Below, in pieces: positions 1 to 38,227 of a stretch of DNA of 54,960 nt. The first letter of the stretch is position 1. The number at the start of each line of letters is the position of its first letter. The position numbers and the translations under genes are program-made. The notes under the pieces are model-generated. The model was not told the DNA's origin and made no database searches. It was given only the letters and a program-made list of their open reading frames with translations. This DNA is from a bacterium. Its GTDB lineage: Bacteria; Patescibacteriota; Doudnabacteria; UBA920; VMFF01. The stretch covers positions 1 to 54,960 of the forward strand of contig DAIEPO010000001.1 in NCBI GenBank assembly GCA_027348385.1. The letters are read 5' to 3'.

Positions 1-566
1 TTTGCCAAATCTGGCGTTATGATGGGCACAAAGCCTTCTTTAGCAAGTAATCTAAAAGCATATTCAACTAAAGCAAATTCAAGGAATACAATATCCCCAA
101 GAAGAAAATAAAATTGAGAACCAGTAACTTTCGCACCTGCTTCAAAATTTAAGAGACCAAGAGCTTTCCCCAATTCAAAATGTGTTTTTGGTTTAAAAGC
201 AAAGCTCGGCTTTGTGCCAAAAGTTTTTAATACCTTGTTATCATTTTCGGTTTCCCCTATTGGTACGTCGTCAAAGGGTAAGTTTGGAATTCCATTAAGT
301 AATCGCGAAACCTGTTCTTCTTTTTCCTTAAGAGTACCTTCTAGCCCTTGCAAAGCAATTTTAATTTGTTTTGCTTCTTCACGGTTGGCATCAGTTATTG
401 ATATTTCATTACGGCGTTTTCTCAAGTCCTCAGACTCTGCTAACAATTTTCTATACTCTAAATCTGCCACTATAAAATTATCAACCATTGATGGGTCGTA
501 TCCTTTGGTGGCTATTTTCTTTTTTACTAACTCTTTATTATCTCGTACAAATTTAATATCTATCAT
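1..566 (-). CDS. serS: seryl-tRNA synthetase, N-terminal part (gene continues past the left window edge)
   Basis: Own reverse-strand translation from ATG at 566-564: MIDIKFVRDNKELVKKKIATKGYD...FEAGAKVTGSQFYFLLGDIVFLEFALVEYAF..GFVPIITPDLA. This is the SerRS coiled-coil arm plus the start of the class II core. It is absent from the ORF track because it is open at the edge. Confidence 0.85.
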   Translation of the reverse strand, partial: MIDIKFVRDNKELVKKKIATKGYDPSMVDNFIVADLEYRKLLAESEDLRKRRNEISITDANREEAKQIKIALQGLEGTLKEKEEQVSRLLNGIPNLPFDDVPIGETENDNKVLKTFGTKPSFAFKPKTHFELGKALGLLNFEAGAKVTGSQFYFLLGDIVFLEFALVEYAFRLLAKEGFVPIITPDLA

Positions 567-687
567 ACAATTTTACTCACGACTAGCGAGTCTTGTTAAA
601 TTATTATTGAATTGACATCAGAATAAGCTACTCTCCAAATTTTTACAAATGTAATCAATACTATACAGTATCATCGTAGTAATCGTG

Positions 688-883
688 CTACCTTACTCTT
701 TTCACCCTTTCTGCGACAACCTCAATCGGTGTCTTTAAATTAATTCCCAGATGGTATCGCTCTGTATTGTAGAAAAGAATGTATTCTTGGTAAACCCTGA
801 CTAAGAGCATGATCCTTTGATGACGCGTCTGCAATCACCTAGCGTTTAACAGGAGTGAGTTTAATCCATTTGTGTATTTGCAT
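688..883 (-). pseudogene. decayed DDE transposase/integrase remnant (C-terminal rve-type tail plus possible N-terminal stub)
   Basis: Minus-strand frame ending at TAG 690-688 reads ...QEYILFYNTERYHLGINLKTPIEVVAERVKRVR*. This is the FYN-x-x-R-x-H-x-x-L-x-x-x-TP-x-E signature found at the C-terminus of IS3/IS481/IS30-type integrase cores. The frame is closed by a stop about 48 codons upstream. A separate 14-codon stub MQIHKWIKLTPVKR* starts at 883. No catalytic core is present. Confidence 0.45.
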
Positions 884-950
884 ATTGTTGCTTACACTTT
901 ACCTTAAGTTAAAAGTGTTAACAACGCGATTAATTCTTACAAATAACGAC

Positions 951-1459
951 ATGAAAAAATCCATTATTTTCATCTGCAACGGCAACATAGAACGGTCAGC
1001 AATAGCCACACAGTGTTTAAATAACCTTTTTTAAAAAAAGCGATTAACTGCAAAATACAAAACAGATTCCTTTGGTTTGCAGGGCACCAAAAATACTCCT
1101 AAGCCACTGCATAAGAAACTTAGTCAATACCCAAAAGAATACAAAGCGGCGTATCCAACACAAAAAAATTAAAGCTTGATATCAGTGAACATAATTACAA
1201 AAAAATAACTTTGTCTGCAATAAACTCTGCGACAACAATAATCGCAATGGACAAAAAAGTATATTCTTCAGCAAACAACTCCCTTTTAAAACAATTTCCT
1301 TTTGCTAAGAAAAAAATTCATATTTTTTCAGAAATAACCATCAAGCATAAAAATGTAAAAGATCCTCACGGTAGTGGAAGCTATAAAACTCACGAACAGG
1401 TTATACAACAAATTCAAAAAGCAATAAATAAAAACTACAAAGAAATTCTCCGCTGGTAA
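951..1459 (+). pseudogene. low-molecular-weight protein-tyrosine phosphatase / ArsC-like, disrupted
   Basis: ATG at 951 gives MKKSIIFICNGNIERSAIATQCLNNLF, which contains the C-x5-R-S P-loop. An in-frame TAA follows at 1032-1034 beside a T6A7 run. Homology continues (DSFGLQG) to a second stop at 1170-1172. The reading frame shifts at the A7 run 1162-1168, and the new frame gives KLKLDISEHNYKKITLSAINSATTIIAMD...DPHGS, the D-P loop, ending at 1459. Confidence 0.75.
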
Positions 1460-1496
1460 GAATAAACTTTTACTATCATAGATAAGAGAACAGCCC

Positions 1497-1548
1497 AAAA
1501 AACAAGCAAAGACCGTTCACACCTGGAGGGCATGAACGGTCTTGCTTG
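1497..1548 (-). terminator. rho-independent terminator of the GC-rich lipoprotein gene
   Basis: Near-perfect inverted repeat CAAGCA(A)AGACCGTTCA (1503-1519) / TGAACGGTCTTGCTTG (1533-1548). On the minus strand it is followed by TTTTTT (1502-1497). Confidence 0.75.
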
Positions 1549-1569
1549 AAGGAATATCTAATAGCGTAA

Positions 1570-2559
1570 CTATGGCCGGAGTCGCAGGATGAACCATAGT
1601 GGCACTTCGTTACGTTCCGAGTTCTTGAACCATTGGTAAACGTCGAGCGCGTAGTTCGCTGGGGGACCGATATGTCCGAACCAAAAAACGAAGTGATTCG
1701 GATCTTGAAATGACCCAGCACCGCTCCAAAAACTCGCATCGCCTGGGATTACTTGCGAAGTGAAAGAAAGAGTGCCCATCGTTCCCTTGAAATCAACGCC
1801 GTTGACCGACGTTACCGAGTTGCCCGTGCAAGTGACGGTCAGTTGACCCGTCCAAGCAACGTTTACACTGTCCGGTGACATACCAGAACACTTCAACGTC
1901 GGCACAATCAACGACTTGGTGATACTGGCCGAGACAAGTGAGCCGTCCTGACCAATGCAAGAAACCGTGATGGTAACCTGTCGCTTGCCATTCACAAGCA
2001 CAGGCATCGTACTGCCAGGCGTGTAGACAAGCGTGTCGCCGTCCACCGAAGCCGTAGCTTTCACGGTCTTCGGATCAGCCGTTGTTGGTGTGCCGTTGAA
2101 GACCGGCGCGCTGCAAGAGCTGATGTTCTGCTTTACGAGCGGGAACTTCGCGCTGGAGTTCAGAACGATCCCCGAATCAGGGACCAAACTTCCACTGATC
2201 ACCAGCGTCGGCTTCCCGACAACGTTGACCATGAGCGAAAGCGAGACCTTCTGCGCACCCTTGCCGTTGCCGACGAAAGTGTAAGCACTCGTCTTGGAAG
2301 GCGAAAGCTGTAGAGTCGTGTCTGACGCAACATTCACGCCAGTCTGATACTTAACGTCATTATCAGAAGTGACCGTGACGCTCGAGCAATTGCTGAAGCT
2401 GAGCTTAACCTGCGTGGTCTGACCAGCGCTGATCGTCACTTGCGACGACGGGCTGATCGATCCACTGCAAGTCTTGATGACGGGGTCGGTGATACCGGGT
2501 TCCCCGCCACAAGCCGAAAGAAACAGGCTCGCCGAGAGCAACAAATAGATATTCCGCAT
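1570..2559 (-). CDS. GC-rich lipoprotein with Cys-framed Ig-like beta repeats (compositional island)
   Basis: ORF track 339 aa. I start it at Met11 (MRNIYLLLSASLFLSAC-GG, lipobox L-S-A-C) because AAGGAGGG lies 5 nt upstream of that ATG. The body is Ser/Thr/Val-rich with paired Cys. Sampled lines are 50-58% GC, against 35-42% in the flanks. Confidence 0.7.
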   Translation of the reverse strand: MRNIYLLLSASLFLSACGGEPGITDPVIKTCSGSISPSSQVTISAGQTTQVKLSFSNCSSVTVTSDNDVKYQTGVNVASDTTLQLSPSKTSAYTFVGNGKGAQKVSLSLMVNVVGKPTLVISGSLVPDSGIVLNSSAKFPLVKQNISSCSAPVFNGTPTTADPKTVKATASVDGDTLVYTPGSTMPVLVNGKRQVTITVSCIGQDGSLVSASITKSLIVPTLKCSGMSPDSVNVAWTGQLTVTCTGNSVTSVNGVDFKGTMGTLSFTSQVIPGDASFWSGAGSFQDPNHFVFWFGHIGPPANYALDVYQWFKNSERNEVPLWFILRLRP

Positions 2560-2601
2560 GTGCCCTCCTTTTAAGGCTGCGGGGTTCATGTTGGCACTGC
2601 A

Positions 2602-2654
2602 ACAATGCAGACCAATCGTGTCTGCATTGTAGGATATTATTTAATTTTTGTCAA
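2602..2654 (-). promoter_or_regulatory. consensus sigma70-type promoter plus overlapping inverted-repeat operator candidate
   Basis: Minus strand reads TTGACA (2654-2649), a 17-nt spacer, then TACAAT (2631-2626). An 11-bp inverted repeat ACAATGCAGAC (2602-2612) / GTCTGCATTGT (2620-2630) overlaps the -10 and the predicted +1. Confidence 0.6.
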
Positions 2655-2711
2655 GTTTGCGTTTTTTATCCCTATTTTTACCACTATGTTAAACGGGATT
2701 TTTGCTGTATT

Positions 2712-4181
2712 TTAATACACTTGTAACACGGCTTTAGTTTGTGCTTGTAAATTTAAAGTAACAATTGACCCAGCAGTTGCTGTTTTAGAATCTGAGTAAG
2801 CAGTAGCTTTCCAAACTTGCCCATTAACCAAAACGCGAACAGAACCATCTTGACCAGGCTTTGCTATTATCGAATAAGTTCCTGGACTCAAATTGCTAAA
2901 AGTTCCTGTAGAACTACCAGGTATTGTACTAACTCCACTAATAACAAATCCATCGGGAAATGCTGCAGCAGAAACAACTACTCCATTAACTATAGCATTG
3001 ACGTTTACTGTTACATTTGACACTGGTGTATAACTAGCAACCGCGACTCGTTCAATTGCTATAGTACCATTTGGTGCAGTACTCCAAGCATCAATGAAAT
3101 AAGTCATTGATGTCACGGTGCTAGACACTTCATTGGCAGCAGTAGTTGCTGTTAAGACGCCGGTATAATTTGAAATTTGAGACAATTGCGATGTGCCATT
3201 AAAGCCAAAGTACCCACCGGTAATTTTTGCATTGGTACAGTTAGCAACAGAAAAACTTACTGTTACGCTTAGGTTAGCATTAACTGTAGCAGATTGATTT
3301 GTAATTTCACAAGCAGCTGTTTTAATAATAGTCACTTTTTGTCGTGGTTCATTCGGAGCTGTAAATAGATAATAATCTGTACTGTTCGCAGTGACATTCA
3401 CGAGATAACCATCTGTTGGATTATTCACAGGGACAGGAATAAAACTATTAGTAGGATCAATTATATAAGCATTAGTGCAATTGGTCGTTGTCCAATATAA
3501 CCTGCTGGCGTCAGTCGTAGGGTTAGGCGACGCTGTGAAAGTGTTTATCGCACAGGAAGCGGAACTAACAGTAATGGTAACTGAAGCAGTTGCAGCACCA
3601 AAAGACCCTGTTATGGTATAAGTTGTAGTGGCTGTTGGAGTCACAGATTTACTTGTAAGCCCAGTAACATCACCAACACCATTATCAATAGACAAGGTGG
3701 AACAATTTTGAGCTGACCATGTTAAGAGCGCAGATTGACCACTACTAATCGTTAAAGATGTTGATGTGAAATTGCTCAAAACACACGAATTACCTCCTTG
3801 AGTAACAGGGATGGTAATACTAGCTACAGTTGTACCAGTTTCATCTACCAAGAGATAGGTCGGATTGGTGCCTGTATATAGCAAGGGAGCAGTGGTGTAA
3901 CTGTCTATTGGATAAACGCTTGTATACAAAGGGTCTGTCAAAAAACGGCTAGACTGTAAATAAATGGTTACTGATGCGCATCCTGTTTGTGTCCAACCAA
4001 TTGTTGCAATGTTCCCTGAGGCAACGACACTAGGAGTTGCTAGAAGCGAATTAATGACACAGCTATTGGCTTGAGCAGATTTGGGTGCAAAATCAAAAGA
4101 GCCTAAAAACAAAGCTAAAATAATAAACAAAAATATATTTGGTTTAAAAAGTTTTTTAAACATAAGATTAAAAGATTGCAT
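2712..4181 (-). CDS. secreted repeat protein: four Cys-framed Ig-like modules plus C-terminal PEGA/carboxypeptidase-regulatory-like domain
   Basis: ORF track 489 aa. Signal peptide is MFKKLFKPNIFLFIILALFLGSFDFAPKSAQA-NS. Four modules begin at SC/AC and close at NC(S/T): CVINS...WTQTGCASVTI, CVLSNF..TISSGQSALLTWSAQNCSTLSI, CAINTF...WTTTNCTNAYI, CEITN...FSVANCTNAKI. The tail reads GTFSNLSPGTYSIIAKPGQDG. Confidence 0.7.
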   Translation of the reverse strand: MQSFNLMFKKLFKPNIFLFIILALFLGSFDFAPKSAQANSCVINSLLATPSVVASGNIATIGWTQTGCASVTIYLQSSRFLTDPLYTSVYPIDSYTTAPLLYTGTNPTYLLVDETGTTVASITIPVTQGGNSCVLSNFTSTSLTISSGQSALLTWSAQNCSTLSIDNGVGDVTGLTSKSVTPTATTTYTITGSFGAATASVTITVSSASCAINTFTASPNPTTDASRLYWTTTNCTNAYIIDPTNSFIPVPVNNPTDGYLVNVTANSTDYYLFTAPNEPRQKVTIIKTAACEITNQSATVNANLSVTVSFSVANCTNAKITGGYFGFNGTSQLSQISNYTGVLTATTAANEVSSTVTSMTYFIDAWSTAPNGTIAIERVAVASYTPVSNVTVNVNAIVNGVVVSAAAFPDGFVISGVSTIPGSSTGTFSNLSPGTYSIIAKPGQDGSVRVLVNGQVWKATAYSDSKTATAGSIVTLNLQAQTKAVLQVY

Positions 4182-4184
4182 CGA

Positions 4185-4640
4185 TTATCTTCCTTTCTTC
4201 ACGGTGCTAATAATGATCTGTGTAGTTGTCTCTGTTAATTGTTGTATGAGAACATTAACATCGCCTTCGGATTTTGTACCATATATGTTGGCAACTGTTG
4301 GTTGTAATCTTTGATTAACGATCACATAATTATTATCCCTAAGATATTTATCTGCTTTTAAATAGGCAATAATCACTTTATCTTTAGATACATACTCTGC
4401 TGTATATTGCTTGGCAGAACGGCCATAATCAATTGAGTAGCTTTCTGTAATTTTTTTAGCATCAAAAACTAAATCTACCGGAAAACCAGAGATAACCTGA
4501 CCCTCTGCTGCATCAGTTCTAGGAAAAACTTTTGGTTTGTTAGCTTGGTTGTACCAATATGTTAATCCTCCCAAAAGCACAATCAAAACAATGATTGCCA
4601 AAAAACGCATTAGTTGCGTATTTTTACCTGTATATTCCAT
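4185..4640 (-). CDS. N-terminally membrane-anchored hypothetical protein, translationally coupled to the repeat protein
   Basis: ORF track 151 aa. One TM helix (FLAIIVLIVLLGGLTYWY). Its stop lies 3 nt before the next start. Confidence 0.6.
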   Translation of the reverse strand: MEYTGKNTQLMRFLAIIVLIVLLGGLTYWYNQANKPKVFPRTDAAEGQVISGFPVDLVFDAKKITESYSIDYGRSAKQYTAEYVSKDKVIIAYLKADKYLRDNNYVIVNQRLQPTVANIYGTKSEGDVNVLIQQLTETTTQIIISTVKKGR

Positions 4641-4769
4641 ATGGCGATGTTATGATGATGTTTAATTTTATGTTTGTGTCGCTTGTCCCTCTAAACTACG
4701 CCTGAAATATACCATAGAAAACTGCAAAACCACAAACTATGAACATCCAGACCTTTTTAAACCCCTTGG

Positions 4770-37924: not shown

Positions 37925-38227
37925 ATGGTAGGAAGAGCTTTGTTTGCGAGTGATCAATTCACTTTCACCGAGACCCCAGACGGTCTCCTGGAAGTGAAGG
38001 TCGATGGGTCAGTGAGAAACAGAGAGAAGCTTCTCAGTGACCTCTTCCGTGCCCTGAGTGGCACGGCACCGAAAACGCATTGCCTTTTCGGTCTCCGGAG
38101 CTTTCATCCGGAATTTGCTGGCCCGCTCCTGGCGCTGGCAAATCACATCGACTGGCGTCCGGTGACGGACGTCACCTTCAACGAAGGAGTGCTGAGCGCG
38201 AAGCTCCCCCCACGCGCAGCGGATTGA
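37925..38227 (+). CDS. GC-rich orphan hypothetical protein (compositional island)
   Basis: ORF track 100 aa. Sampled lines are 53-60% GC. It has its own promoter-like, SD-like and terminator signals, and no motif I recognise. Confidence 0.5.
   Translation: MVGRALFASDQFTFTETPDGLLEVKVDGSVRNREKLLSDLFRALSGTAPKTHCLFGLRSFHPEFAGPLLALANHIDWRPVTDVTFNEGVLSAKLPPRAAD

Follow-up and report, generated by a model that had tools for sequence, protein, structure and literature searches.

Where an AT-rich genome contains a GC-rich island, HGT is the usual interpretation; in the episymbiotic CPR bacteria, such islands are taken for host-derived genes. Locally high GC in an AT-rich genome also marks an RNA that needs a stable structure, and Klein et al. 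reportedly screened AT-rich hyperthermophiles for ncRNAs by GC content in 2002. Among lipoprotein mRNAs, that of E. coli lpp is the classic unusually long-lived example. In the hok/Sok type I toxin system, the tac/fbi fold-back stem closes the full-length mRNA, which is stable and has an inactive initiation region (PMC9841398). The hok mRNA is about 400 nt long, encodes a toxin, has an antisense partner and is activated by 3′ trimming (PMC9841398). The phage moron, by the definition cited in PMC2920897, is a single gene that carries a promoter and a terminator of its own, deviates in GC content and is inserted between unrelated genes. Finally, a hypervariable surface-protein gene of a Gracilibacterium shows extreme local variation in an otherwise uniform genome, with synonymous variation within its PTD repeat (Sieber et al. 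2019, PMC6851277).

The island analysed here is a single lipoprotein gene lying in a 54,960-nt contig stretch of a Patescibacteria genome (hereafter the window). Like hok, its mRNA has a long-distance 5′–3′ pairing over the translation start region that is kept by covariation, here as a computed pairing. Unlike hok, the mRNA is 1.1 kb long and encodes a 329-aa Ig-like protein rather than a small toxic peptide, an intact terminator hairpin follows its 3′ arm, and its 5′ arm consists of codons 2–5 instead of the extreme 5′ end. While hok has an antisense partner and is processed, no counterpart is known for the lipoprotein mRNA, and the locus has no Rfam match at the gathering level; raising E up to 5 gives chance-level matches alone. 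The likeness to lpp, a lipoprotein mRNA as well, is one of description. In contrast to the structured ncRNAs, the GC-rich RNA is a full-length coding mRNA, whose protein is under purifying selection (dN/dS about 0.2). As in a moron, the island has its own promoter, a possible operator, a terminator and a GC content unlike that of its surroundings. However, it is located outside any prophage, flanked by serS, glycolysis genes and a surface cassette; both the gene and its location are conserved within the genus, and the deviant GC is a conserved property and not a mark of recent entry. Like the Gracilibacterium gene, it is a CPR surface gene that fragments assemblies, as its second copy lies in two pieces, on contigs C29 and C32. 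For the Gracilibacterium gene, neither a GC island nor a closing helix nor excess folding of the mRNA is described (PMC6851277).

The lipoprotein gene, its signals and its cassette

The preliminary description of this DNA had proposed a self-contained single-gene unit between a promoter and a terminator. Both ends were located, and the orthologs share the signals. The sigma-70-type promoter TTGACA-17-TACAAT (2626–2654, minus strand) matches at 11 of 12 positions and is invariant across orthologs. A perfect palindrome, ACAATGCAGAC-N7-GTCTGCATTGT (2602–2630), with 11-nt arms at 2602–2612 and 2620–2630, overlaps the −10 box and +1, and its copies in the genome are confined to the two copies of the lipoprotein gene family. 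From this sequence we infer that the conserved repeat, previously noticed as a possible site of repression, is probably the operator of the lipoprotein gene. The stretch from the −35 box to about +45 is almost invariant, while the proteins are just 60–70% identical.

The 5′UTR of about 60 nt (2560–2619, minus strand), which is almost invariant among orthologs, includes a 5′-proximal hairpin (2591–2615, minus strand; helix 1 of the consensus fold described below). The Shine-Dalgarno (SD) sequence AAGGAGGG (2563–2570, minus strand) lies 3 nt upstream of the ATG and is conserved in orthologs. As had been supposed, strong SDs are scarce among native genes: 8% of the bulk genes carry one, as compared to 46% of the GC3-rich genes. 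The intrinsic terminator (1497–1550, minus strand) was also found as predicted, with a long GC-rich stem followed by T6 (1497–1502). Its core stem (1543–1509) has 15 pairs and the T-run. In the consensus fold the stem extends to about 1503–1550 and forms helix 35; this helix has 18 pairs, two of them with compensatory double changes in orthologs, and 98.9% of its cells are paired. The terminator loop in this genome reads GCCCUCC, the complement of the SD. A pairing between the two was considered and set aside: the 7-nt complement is merely partial in most orthologs, and such a pairing would be a pseudoknot, which RNAfold cannot score.

The CDS (1570–2559, minus strand; dN/dS 0.19–0.33) encodes the 329-aa protein, with three predicted Ig-like β-sandwich domains and a C-terminal β domain. 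The signal peptide MRNIYLLLSASLFLSAC (2509–2559, minus strand) ends in a lipobox (LSAC), which fits the pattern [LVI][ASTVI][GAS]C; Cys17 is invariant in the family, and A16 and C17 are invariant across 17 homologs. The genome encodes both Lgt (PF01790, E 4.6e-68) and signal peptidase II, LspA (PF01252, E 7.2e-20), each above the curated cut-off. The earlier assignment as a lipoprotein thus holds, and the island product is, as judged from its sequence, a membrane-anchored surface lipoprotein with a predicted lipid modification of the Cys residue. The AF2 model (pLDDT 75) has an Ig-like β-sandwich fold and matches tandem-Ig proteins in Foldseek (E 4e-8 to 1e-6), with low TM-scores because the inter-domain angles differ. 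This predicted Ig-string fold is common among tandem Ig-like adhesins and S-layer proteins (titin-like Ig strings, SiiE, Deinococcus HPI, GhpA), and module 1 matches the adhesin repeats of the T9SS giants that bear Pfam Ig_7 and PKD repeats. Unlike those adhesins, the lipoprotein has just three modules, a predicted lipid anchor, a family-specific C-terminal domain and no Pfam family at threshold.

The gene belongs to a conserved three-gene cassette, in which it follows an AT-rich gene for a 151-aa membrane-anchored protein (4185–4640, minus strand) and an AT-rich gene for a 489-aa secreted protein of Cys-framed Ig-like modules (2712–4181, minus strand; hereafter the neighbour). Pfam gives nothing above the gathering threshold for the three cassette proteins; the sub-threshold matches are Cupredoxin_1, at 15 bits, and DUF6023. 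The shared module reported between the lipoprotein and the neighbour was recovered as a weak similarity above chance (BLASTP E = 0.002; hhalign probability 65%, E = 6e-5, 89 columns), which suggests that the first Ig-like module of the lipoprotein is remotely related to the modules of the neighbour. The C-terminal ~110 residues of the neighbour are hypervariable between close strains, and this part of the gene is still AT-rich. Hypervariable, multi-copy and tightly regulated, the surface-protein cassette is a promising candidate for interactions with a host or phages in this uncultured lineage.

A GC-rich block that coincides with the predicted transcript

We examined the extent of the GC-rich block by segmentation. 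The best two-change-point segment is 1511–2626, with a GC content of 0.539 (54%) as compared to 0.315 and 0.377 (32–38%) in the flanks, so that the jump announced between promoter and terminator is real; one end of the segment lies in the terminator stem and the other at the −10 box. Consistently, 300-nt windows have GC of 0.50–0.56 across 1501–2550 and 0.30–0.40 on either side. By parts, GC is 0.54 in the CDS and 0.53 in the 5′UTR, and 0.29 in both the promoter and the spacer. The GC-rich block therefore coincides with the predicted transcript, from the TSS to the terminator, which is new in this analysis, as are the excess folding and the pairing of the mRNA ends described below. Codon usage is also atypical, as the sliding-window and codon-usage check proposed earlier was meant to reveal: GC3 is 0.65, as compared to a genome median of 0.30, and by codon usage deviance the gene ranks 10th among 438 genes, with other GC-rich genes in ranks 1–9.

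How widely is the gene distributed? It is present in four of the nine genomes of one Patescibacteria family, while 136 other genomes of the order contain no full-length homolog. The sole match in these other genomes covers 40 residues (E 8e-6) and falls within a 1,612-aa protein of genome G084. Among 1.84 billion representative proteins, a library without taxonomy, about 23 full-length relatives were found, and a pattern scan of 185,579 species genomes gave no homolog outside the clade. The named protein matches are all from Patescibacteria MAGs, most matches having no name; the genome searches match genomes of this family exclusively, some of them under wrong or generic database labels.

Within the genus, the gene occurs in three of the four other genomes and in several metagenome relatives. 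In the relatives it always lies directly after the same neighbour gene, and the cassette order (151-aa protein, neighbour, lipoprotein) is conserved at no fewer than two loci per genome. The sister-genome check suggested for the foreign-composition reading thus turned against it. At least 12 homologs were examined, and all are GC-rich beside AT-rich neighbours. In the close clade, orthologs have GC3 of 0.65–0.72 and their neighbours 0.25–0.35; the distant paralogs have a GC3 of about 0.50, and GC-richness is kept in a different genus at 30% identity. Of the features by which genomic islands are recognised, the atypical composition is present, but the gene is not absent from relatives, and it has neither donor homologs nor mobility signatures. 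There are no significant direct repeats flanking the island and no integrase in the loci of relatives. The island is best read as an old, lineage-specific and vertically inherited gene of one Patescibacteria family. A conserved compositional deviation that ends at the transcript boundaries, together with an over-structured mRNA, shows that the HGT reading of GC-rich islands can be wrong.

Folding of the mRNA

The MFE of the full transcript is −437.5, as compared to −404.2 ± 7.2 in synonymous shuffles (z = −4.6). For the CDS alone, eight homologs, including a 28%-identical paralog, give z from −3.3 to −9.2 against synonymous-codon shuffles, and z remains at −3.5 to −6.4 when codons are shuffled within 25-codon blocks. 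In the same tests, the AT-rich neighbour gives z of +0.6 and +2.3, and 14 bulk genes average z = −1.0, with none below −2.8. The consensus fold contains 205 pairs, and 31 of them have double changes, as compared to 22.3 ± 3.1 in shuffles, in a structure derived from the same sequences on which it is scored. Against the RNA-level reading, the RNAalifold covariation term is small (−3.2 kcal/mol). Moreover, between genomes G000 and G004 the d4 of the lipoprotein gene (0.91) is not below the genome median (0.82, near saturation), so that the specific pairs are not strongly frozen.

The predicted fold is closed by a helix between the two ends of the mRNA. Its 5′ arm GGAAUAUCUA (2546–2555, minus strand) comprises codons 2–5, and its 3′ arm UAGAUAUUCC (1551–1560, minus strand) lies 12 nt past the stop codon, directly 5′ of the terminator. 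The base-pair probabilities are 0.86–0.999, and the helix is in the MFE fold of all seven other homologs tested. The arms vary yet stay complementary (GGAATATCTA, GGAAGATT and, in the paralog, AAGATACT): one pair is swapped from G-C to U-A, and G·U wobbles occur, which function solely in the sense RNA. Codons 2–5 are thus predicted to pair with the 3′UTR, and the predicted pairing covaries in the homologs. The duplex z of −3.65 is the strongest among 20 GC-rich genes. In the cell, a helix with a range of 1 kb has to compete with translating ribosomes, which counts against closure. We also considered a DNA inversion switch acting through the 10-bp inverted repeat and rejected it, since about 15 assemblies have one orientation, the arms vary, and the G·U pairs are sense-only.

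Explanations of the GC-richness

We propose the following reading. The gene would be its own transcription unit, with a native-type sigma-70 promoter, the palindrome, a strong SD and an intrinsic terminator. Its mRNA of about 1.1 kb, written in G/C-ending codons, would fold more stably than the protein sequence and composition require, and the closing helix between codons 2–5 and the 3′UTR would seal it beside the terminator. Such a very stable, closed mRNA may be long-lived, and it may be translatable mainly during its synthesis, or only once something opens the closing helix. The protein itself evolves rapidly, and divergent alleles pass between closely related strains, which is natural for a component exposed at the surface. 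From the computed structures we infer that the mRNA is closed in vivo, that this affects its translation and stability, and that it is the cause of the GC-richness. That selection at the RNA level keeps the lipoprotein gene GC-rich has, in our view, a chance slightly short of even, while the whole reading, an old family-restricted gene kept GC-rich through selection on an mRNA with a closed and stable fold, is about as probable as all else together. If confirmed, it would provide a testable long protein-coding mRNA gated by 5′–3′ closure, beyond the type I toxins, and HGT screens in Patescibacteria would need correction.

Ancient HGT is an unlikely explanation. The gene, or the whole GC-rich class, would have passed from a GC-rich donor into the ancestor of the family, with amelioration still unfinished and the folding as a by-product. 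This would suit the strongly atypical composition and codon usage, the strong SDs that are typical of GC-rich genes and not of native ones, the accessory nature of most GC-rich genes (G004 has orthologs of only 7 of the 26) and the intermediate GC3 of the distant paralogs (0.50). Parsimony-polarised synonymous changes on the two youngest branches are mostly GC to AT, which is compatible with GC3 decaying slowly in this clade; however, the outgroups are close to saturation, which biases the polarisation in that same direction, so that this excess carries little weight. On the other hand, neither of the large searches gave a homolog outside the clade, and neutral amelioration would need an ancestral GC3 above 1, given that G000 and G004 differ by a bulk d4 of 0.82. 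The persistence of GC-richness in another genus, the exact ending of the GC block at the transcript ends next to a native, AT-rich promoter, and the composition-controlled folding excess argue against it as well.

GC-biased gene conversion is slightly less probable. The cassette would be a hot spot of allele exchange, in which biased mismatch repair raises the GC content of the exchanged tract. Exchange itself is evident: between L009 and L013, the d4 of the island is 0.80 and that of the flanks 0.03–0.25, which means that a divergent allele was swapped in. The conserved promoter and terminator could act as homology arms, each genome has at least two paralogous copies, and a downstream gene, also GC-rich, shows 99% identity between strains; it is less divergent than the background and was thus recently exchanged. 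However, the C-terminal 110 residues of the neighbour are more variable in the same strains, yet AT-rich, and gene conversion predicts neither boundaries at the TSS and terminator nor a folding excess over synonymous shuffles.

Selection at the codon level, by which G/C-ending codons tune the speed or accuracy of translation of the secreted protein and RNA structure is incidental, is improbable. The extreme preference for AAG (0.94), ATC (0.87) and NCG is what it would produce, and the products of several GC-rich genes are exported or lie in the membrane; but the secreted neighbour in the same cassette uses AT-rich codons, the untranslated 5′UTR is GC-rich too, and the folding energy is lost in shuffles that preserve codon usage. 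Nor does the remainder of the genome fit, as the main GC3 mode takes in 478 of the 504 genes, and the few GC3-rich genes that Pfam recognises encode a cytidine deaminase and an EamA transporter, with no ribosomal or translation genes among them.

That a higher-GC host or partner recently donated a variant of the surface protein is very improbable. The preliminary description pointed to such a donor on the basis of the sharp compositional jump; against it stand the conserved synteny in the relatives searched, the GC-richness of every copy, and the failure to find outside homologs or flanking direct repeats. A chimeric assembly joining the DNA of two organisms can practically be dismissed: the island is 1.5 kb from the contig end and the MAG has small GC-rich contigs (e.g., C31 and C34), but AT-rich sequence lies on either side within one contig, the identical protein and both junctions are found on four independently assembled contigs from different samples, and the NCBI, ENA, JGI and Logan assemblies of relatives have the same architecture.

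Returning to selection on the mRNA, does it extend beyond this gene? The GC3 distribution of the genome is bimodal, with about 26 GC3-rich genes, which are mostly orphan. The other GC-rich genes have a weaker folding excess (mean z of −2.4 vs −1.0, Mann-Whitney p = 0.05). The closing helix was rejected as a general trait of GC-rich genes, being significant only here and in the cassette at C22:28607-29026; nearly all other GC-rich genes have no end-to-end complementarity, so that RNA structure may not explain the entire class. Ribosomal RNA was likewise rejected as a cause of the GC-rich blocks, the MAG having no SSU or LSU rRNA. We therefore suggest only tentatively, and with the odds somewhat against it, that Patescibacteria recode fast-evolving, mostly orphan surface and accessory genes into GC-rich, hyper-structured mRNAs, some of them sealed at their ends through a covarying 5′–3′ helix; the literature searched has no account of GC-rich, structured mRNAs in these bacteria. 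If true, GC-rich single-gene islands in such AT-rich genomes would reflect control at the RNA level over how long mRNAs last and how they are translated, not HGT, and would constitute an uncatalogued layer of post-transcriptional regulation in CPR. G004, of the same genus, has the same bimodal GC3, and the GC3-rich orthologs remain GC-rich (0.65–0.76) across the bulk d4 of 0.82.

The GC-rich block and its regulatory signals

The window is an entire contig (C11) of the source genome (G000), which comprises 555 kb in 50 contigs with 38.2% GC. The lipoprotein gene (1570-2559, minus strand), hereafter called the island gene, is found 1.5 kb into the contig, with a decayed stretch beside serS on one side and an AT-rich gene run on the other. 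In 300-nt windows, the GC content is 0.50-0.56 across 1501-2550 and 0.30-0.40 on both sides. A maximum-likelihood two-change-point fit places the block at 1511-2626, the terminator stem marking one end and the -10 box the other, with a GC content of 0.539 against 0.315 and 0.377 in the flanks. The gene has a GC3 of 0.65, as compared to the genome median of 0.30, and ranks 10th of 438 genes in codon-usage deviation (AAG, 0.94 vs 0.31 in the comparison; ATC, 0.87 vs 0.22; ACG, 0.52 vs 0.06). These analyses confirm the sharp GC jump of the preliminary description and show that codon usage deviates as well. An assembly artefact is rejected, because independent assemblies of different samples contain the identical 329-aa protein on four contigs, three with AT-rich flanks on both sides and one with the upstream flank, and because the same architecture is present in the relatives' NCBI, ENA, JGI and Logan assemblies.

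All of the signals that had been described for the block were found: the promoter (TTGACA-17-TACAAT), the GC-rich terminator, the Shine-Dalgarno sequence (SD; AAGGAGGG), the lipobox (LSAC, read off the sequence) and the 11-nt perfect inverted repeat. The stretch from the -35 box to about +45 is nearly invariant among orthologs whose proteins are just 60-70% identical. Within it, the palindrome ACAATGCAGAC-N7-GTCTGCATTGT spans the -10 box and +1, and in G000 it occurs only at both copies of the lipoprotein family. This perfect, conserved palindrome is a plausible operator, in line with the earlier suggestion of repression. A 5′-proximal RNA hairpin overlaps its right arm. In G000, a strong SD precedes 8% of the bulk genes (any candidate start was allowed, at a distance of up to 20 nt), vs 46% of the GC3-rich genes; this agrees with the proposal that most native genes lack one. 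Translation of most native genes appears to be SD-independent, and that of the GC-rich genes SD-led.

Distribution and evolution of the island gene

The lipoprotein has 15 matches among 5.8 billion proteins, most of them unnamed, and the only named ones are from Patescibacteria MAGs. Among 1.84 billion representative proteins there are about 23 full-length relatives; the other matches are Ig_7/PKD repeats of giant adhesins, which align to module 1 only. Within the genus, the proposed search of sister genomes detected homologs in 3 of the 4 other genomes. Elsewhere in the family, one sister genus has a homolog in 1 of its 2 genomes, and the remaining three genera have none. A further 136 genomes of the order yielded no full-length homolog.

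The gene invariably follows the same two genes. The first encodes a protein of ~150-170 aa that is membrane-anchored at its N-terminus, and the second a secreted protein of ~470-500 aa built from several modules (in the window, 4185-4640 and 2712-4181, respectively, both on the minus strand). At least two loci per genome hold this three-gene cassette, iPGM/serS lying close to one and prfA/rpsB to another. All lipoprotein homologs are GC-rich beside AT-rich neighbours: the GC3 is 0.65-0.72 in the orthologs and 0.25-0.35 in the adjacent genes; a copy from a different genus, at 30% identity, has 0.65, and paralogs at 28% identity have ~0.50. The clade-only homologs, the fixed cassette position and the GC-richness of every homolog speak against a recent foreign insert. 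The original observation was right, while its reading as acquisition from a higher-GC donor or host is not supported. The architecture fits the phage moron definition (PMC2920897), apart from the absence of a phage and the conserved position.

The second lipoprotein copy of G000 is split over two tiny contigs, C29 (1-750) and C32 (1-650). Its promoter and palindrome are identical to those of the island gene, its terminator is near-identical, and identity between the coding sequences drops from 71% at the N-terminal end to 47% at the C-terminal end. The assembly breaks within the coding sequence of this copy, which suggests strain-level hypervariability. In one sample (L031; ENA ERZ27237050 contig), the identical lipoprotein and its 489-aa neighbour, which the family alignment shows to be 100% identical, follow prfA-rpmE and a 163-aa gene, rather than iPGM and the 151-aa gene as in window 1-4700. 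This arrangement could stem from recombination of one cassette locus with the other, or from an assembler confusing the two. The 151-aa protein (4185-4640) combines its membrane anchor with a sub-threshold staphylococcal nuclease match (PF00565, E 0.002, 19.1 bits; cut-off 21).

Two main rivals would account for the GC-richness without recent acquisition, the first being ancient transfer. The crude four-fold-site divergence (d4) between G000 and the near-complete G004 genome from the same genus is 0.91 for the island gene, with a bulk median of 0.82. Given that d4, the ancestral GC3 would have to exceed 1 under an F81-type decay to the genomic value. Therefore, the GC-richness is maintained, not left over. 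The lipoprotein is under purifying selection (dN/dS 0.19-0.33), and nonetheless evolves faster than the bulk.

The second main rival is GC-biased gene conversion. In the close strains L009 and L013, the d4 of the lipoprotein gene is 0.80, far above the 0.03-0.25 of its flanks, and therefore divergent alleles have been exchanged between lineages. Along this locus, a variable neighbour C-terminus is followed by a 98-100% conserved promoter and 5′UTR, an increasingly divergent lipoprotein coding sequence and a 98-100% identical downstream region. The DNA for the C-terminal ~110 aa of the neighbour (2712-3050) is 31-65% identical between strains, as compared to ~90% in the rest of the gene, yet this equally hypervariable segment remains AT-rich, which argues against recombination alone. 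Its variation together with the lipoprotein may reflect an interaction of the two proteins. A hypervariable CPR surface gene is known in a Gracilibacterium (PMC6851277).

In L009 (2794-5159) and L013 (2702-5067), the lipoprotein gene is followed by a GC-rich carbamoyltransferase gene (GC3 0.58) and a 193-aa gene (GC3 0.52). These two are 99% identical between the strains, and their d4 of 0.03, vs 0.25 for serS, indicates a recent exchange. Both are missing from G000, where the corresponding stretch (~600-1500) appears decayed.

Predicted folding of the mRNA

A 10-nt perfect inverted repeat brackets the coding sequence, with one arm at codons 2-5 (2546-2555) and the other in the 3′UTR directly before the terminator (1551-1560). 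In the fold of the whole 1,120-nt transcript, the arms of this predicted closing helix pair with probabilities of 0.86-0.999, and the minimum free energy (MFE) folds of 7/7 other homologs tested contain a closing helix of 11-21 pairs. The arms vary in sequence while complementarity is kept (GGAATATCTA / TAGATATTCC; GGAAGATT / AATCTTCC; GGAAGAT plus TTGTTGCT / AGCAACAA; and, in a 28%-identical paralog, AAGATACT / AGTATCTT). In the MAFFT alignment, 85% of the helix cells are paired, vs 44-58% with a slid partner; G-C is replaced by U-A at one pair, and several pairs are G.U wobbles, possible in the sense RNA only.

The MFE of the transcript is -437.5 kcal/mol, vs -404.2 +/- 7.2 for shuffles preserving protein and codon usage (z=-4.6), while the AT-rich neighbour gives z=+0.6 in the same test. 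The coding sequence alone gives z=-3.3 to -9.2 across 8 homologs, and 25-codon-block shuffles give -3.5 to -6.4 (neighbour, +2.3). The mean z is -1.0 for 14 bulk genes (minimum -2.8) and -2.4 for 14 other GC-rich genes (Mann-Whitney p 0.05). The RNAalifold consensus comprises 205 pairs; double changes occur in 31 of these, vs 22.3 +/- 3.1 in shuffled data. The terminator is conserved in the orthologs, with compensatory changes.

We tentatively regard RNA-level selection on a self-closing mRNA as the likeliest cause of the GC-richness, at slightly short of an even chance. The nearest mechanistic analogue of the closing helix is the tac/fbi fold-back of the hok mRNA (PMC9841398). A literature search turned up no account of coding mRNAs from Patescibacteria that are both GC-rich and hyper-structured, and the predicted closing helix and excess folding of the island gene are new here.

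In the terminator loop (1519-1533), the 7 nt GCCCUCC are complementary to the SD GGAGGGC (2563-2570). Orthologs retain a CC(C/A)UCC loop, with only a partial match to their own SD. A loop-SD kissing interaction may extend the 5′-3′ closure.

Proposed expression, the product and other GC-rich genes

Transcription from the native promoter, which a repressor bound to the palindrome probably controls, would yield a GC-rich, very stable mRNA. Once transcription is complete, the 3′UTR is predicted to lock the start region at codons 2-5, a local hairpin partly holding the SD, so that translation would be mainly co-transcriptional or follow the opening of the closing helix. We infer the promoter gating, mRNA locking and translation timing from the sequence and its folding. 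The protein would then be exported, lipidated and displayed alongside the two other cassette proteins.

With Lgt and LspA encoded in G000, the product is most naturally read as a lipid-anchored surface protein. AlphaFold2 on the family alignment (pLDDT 75) predicts three Ig-like sandwiches and a less confident C-terminal beta domain. Foldseek returns generic tandem-Ig proteins only, e.g., titin, SiiE, HPI S-layer protein and GhpA. The proposed kinship of the first module with a neighbour module holds at the domain level, where the similarity is weak but real (BLASTP E=0.002; profile-profile E=6e-5, probability 65%, 89 columns).

The island gene belongs to a wider class. GC3 is bimodal among the 504 ORFs of G000, with 478 in the main mode (about 470 below 0.40) and 26 at 0.50-0.78, and likewise in G004. 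The GC3-rich genes form ~0.5-1.4 kb blocks within AT-rich contigs, such as C22:48637-49182, C33:38191-39123, C44:23503-24555, C49:14724-15413, C15:3453-3971, C7:1797-2651 and window 37925-38227. rRNA is rejected as their cause, since the MAG holds none. Between G000 and G004, reciprocal best matches link 390/473 bulk genes (median 87% amino-acid identity) vs 7/26 GC3-rich genes (median 65%), whose G004 partners are again GC3-rich (0.65-0.76). Pfam domains are absent from 8/10 of the larger GC-rich genes, and most GC3-rich genes of G000 can be considered orphans. Contig C31 of G000 (654 bp, GC 0.53) carries a SecA-like N-terminal fragment, only 60% identical to the G004 SecA, and may have entered the bin as contamination from a different organism.

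Complementary ends are no shared trait of the GC-rich genes: only the island gene and one other cassette have them. In the latter (C22:28607-29026), the 5′ leader (-82) and the 3′ trailer (+55) share a 10-nt exact complement (p=0.005 vs shuffles), and this cassette may produce a second end-paired mRNA.
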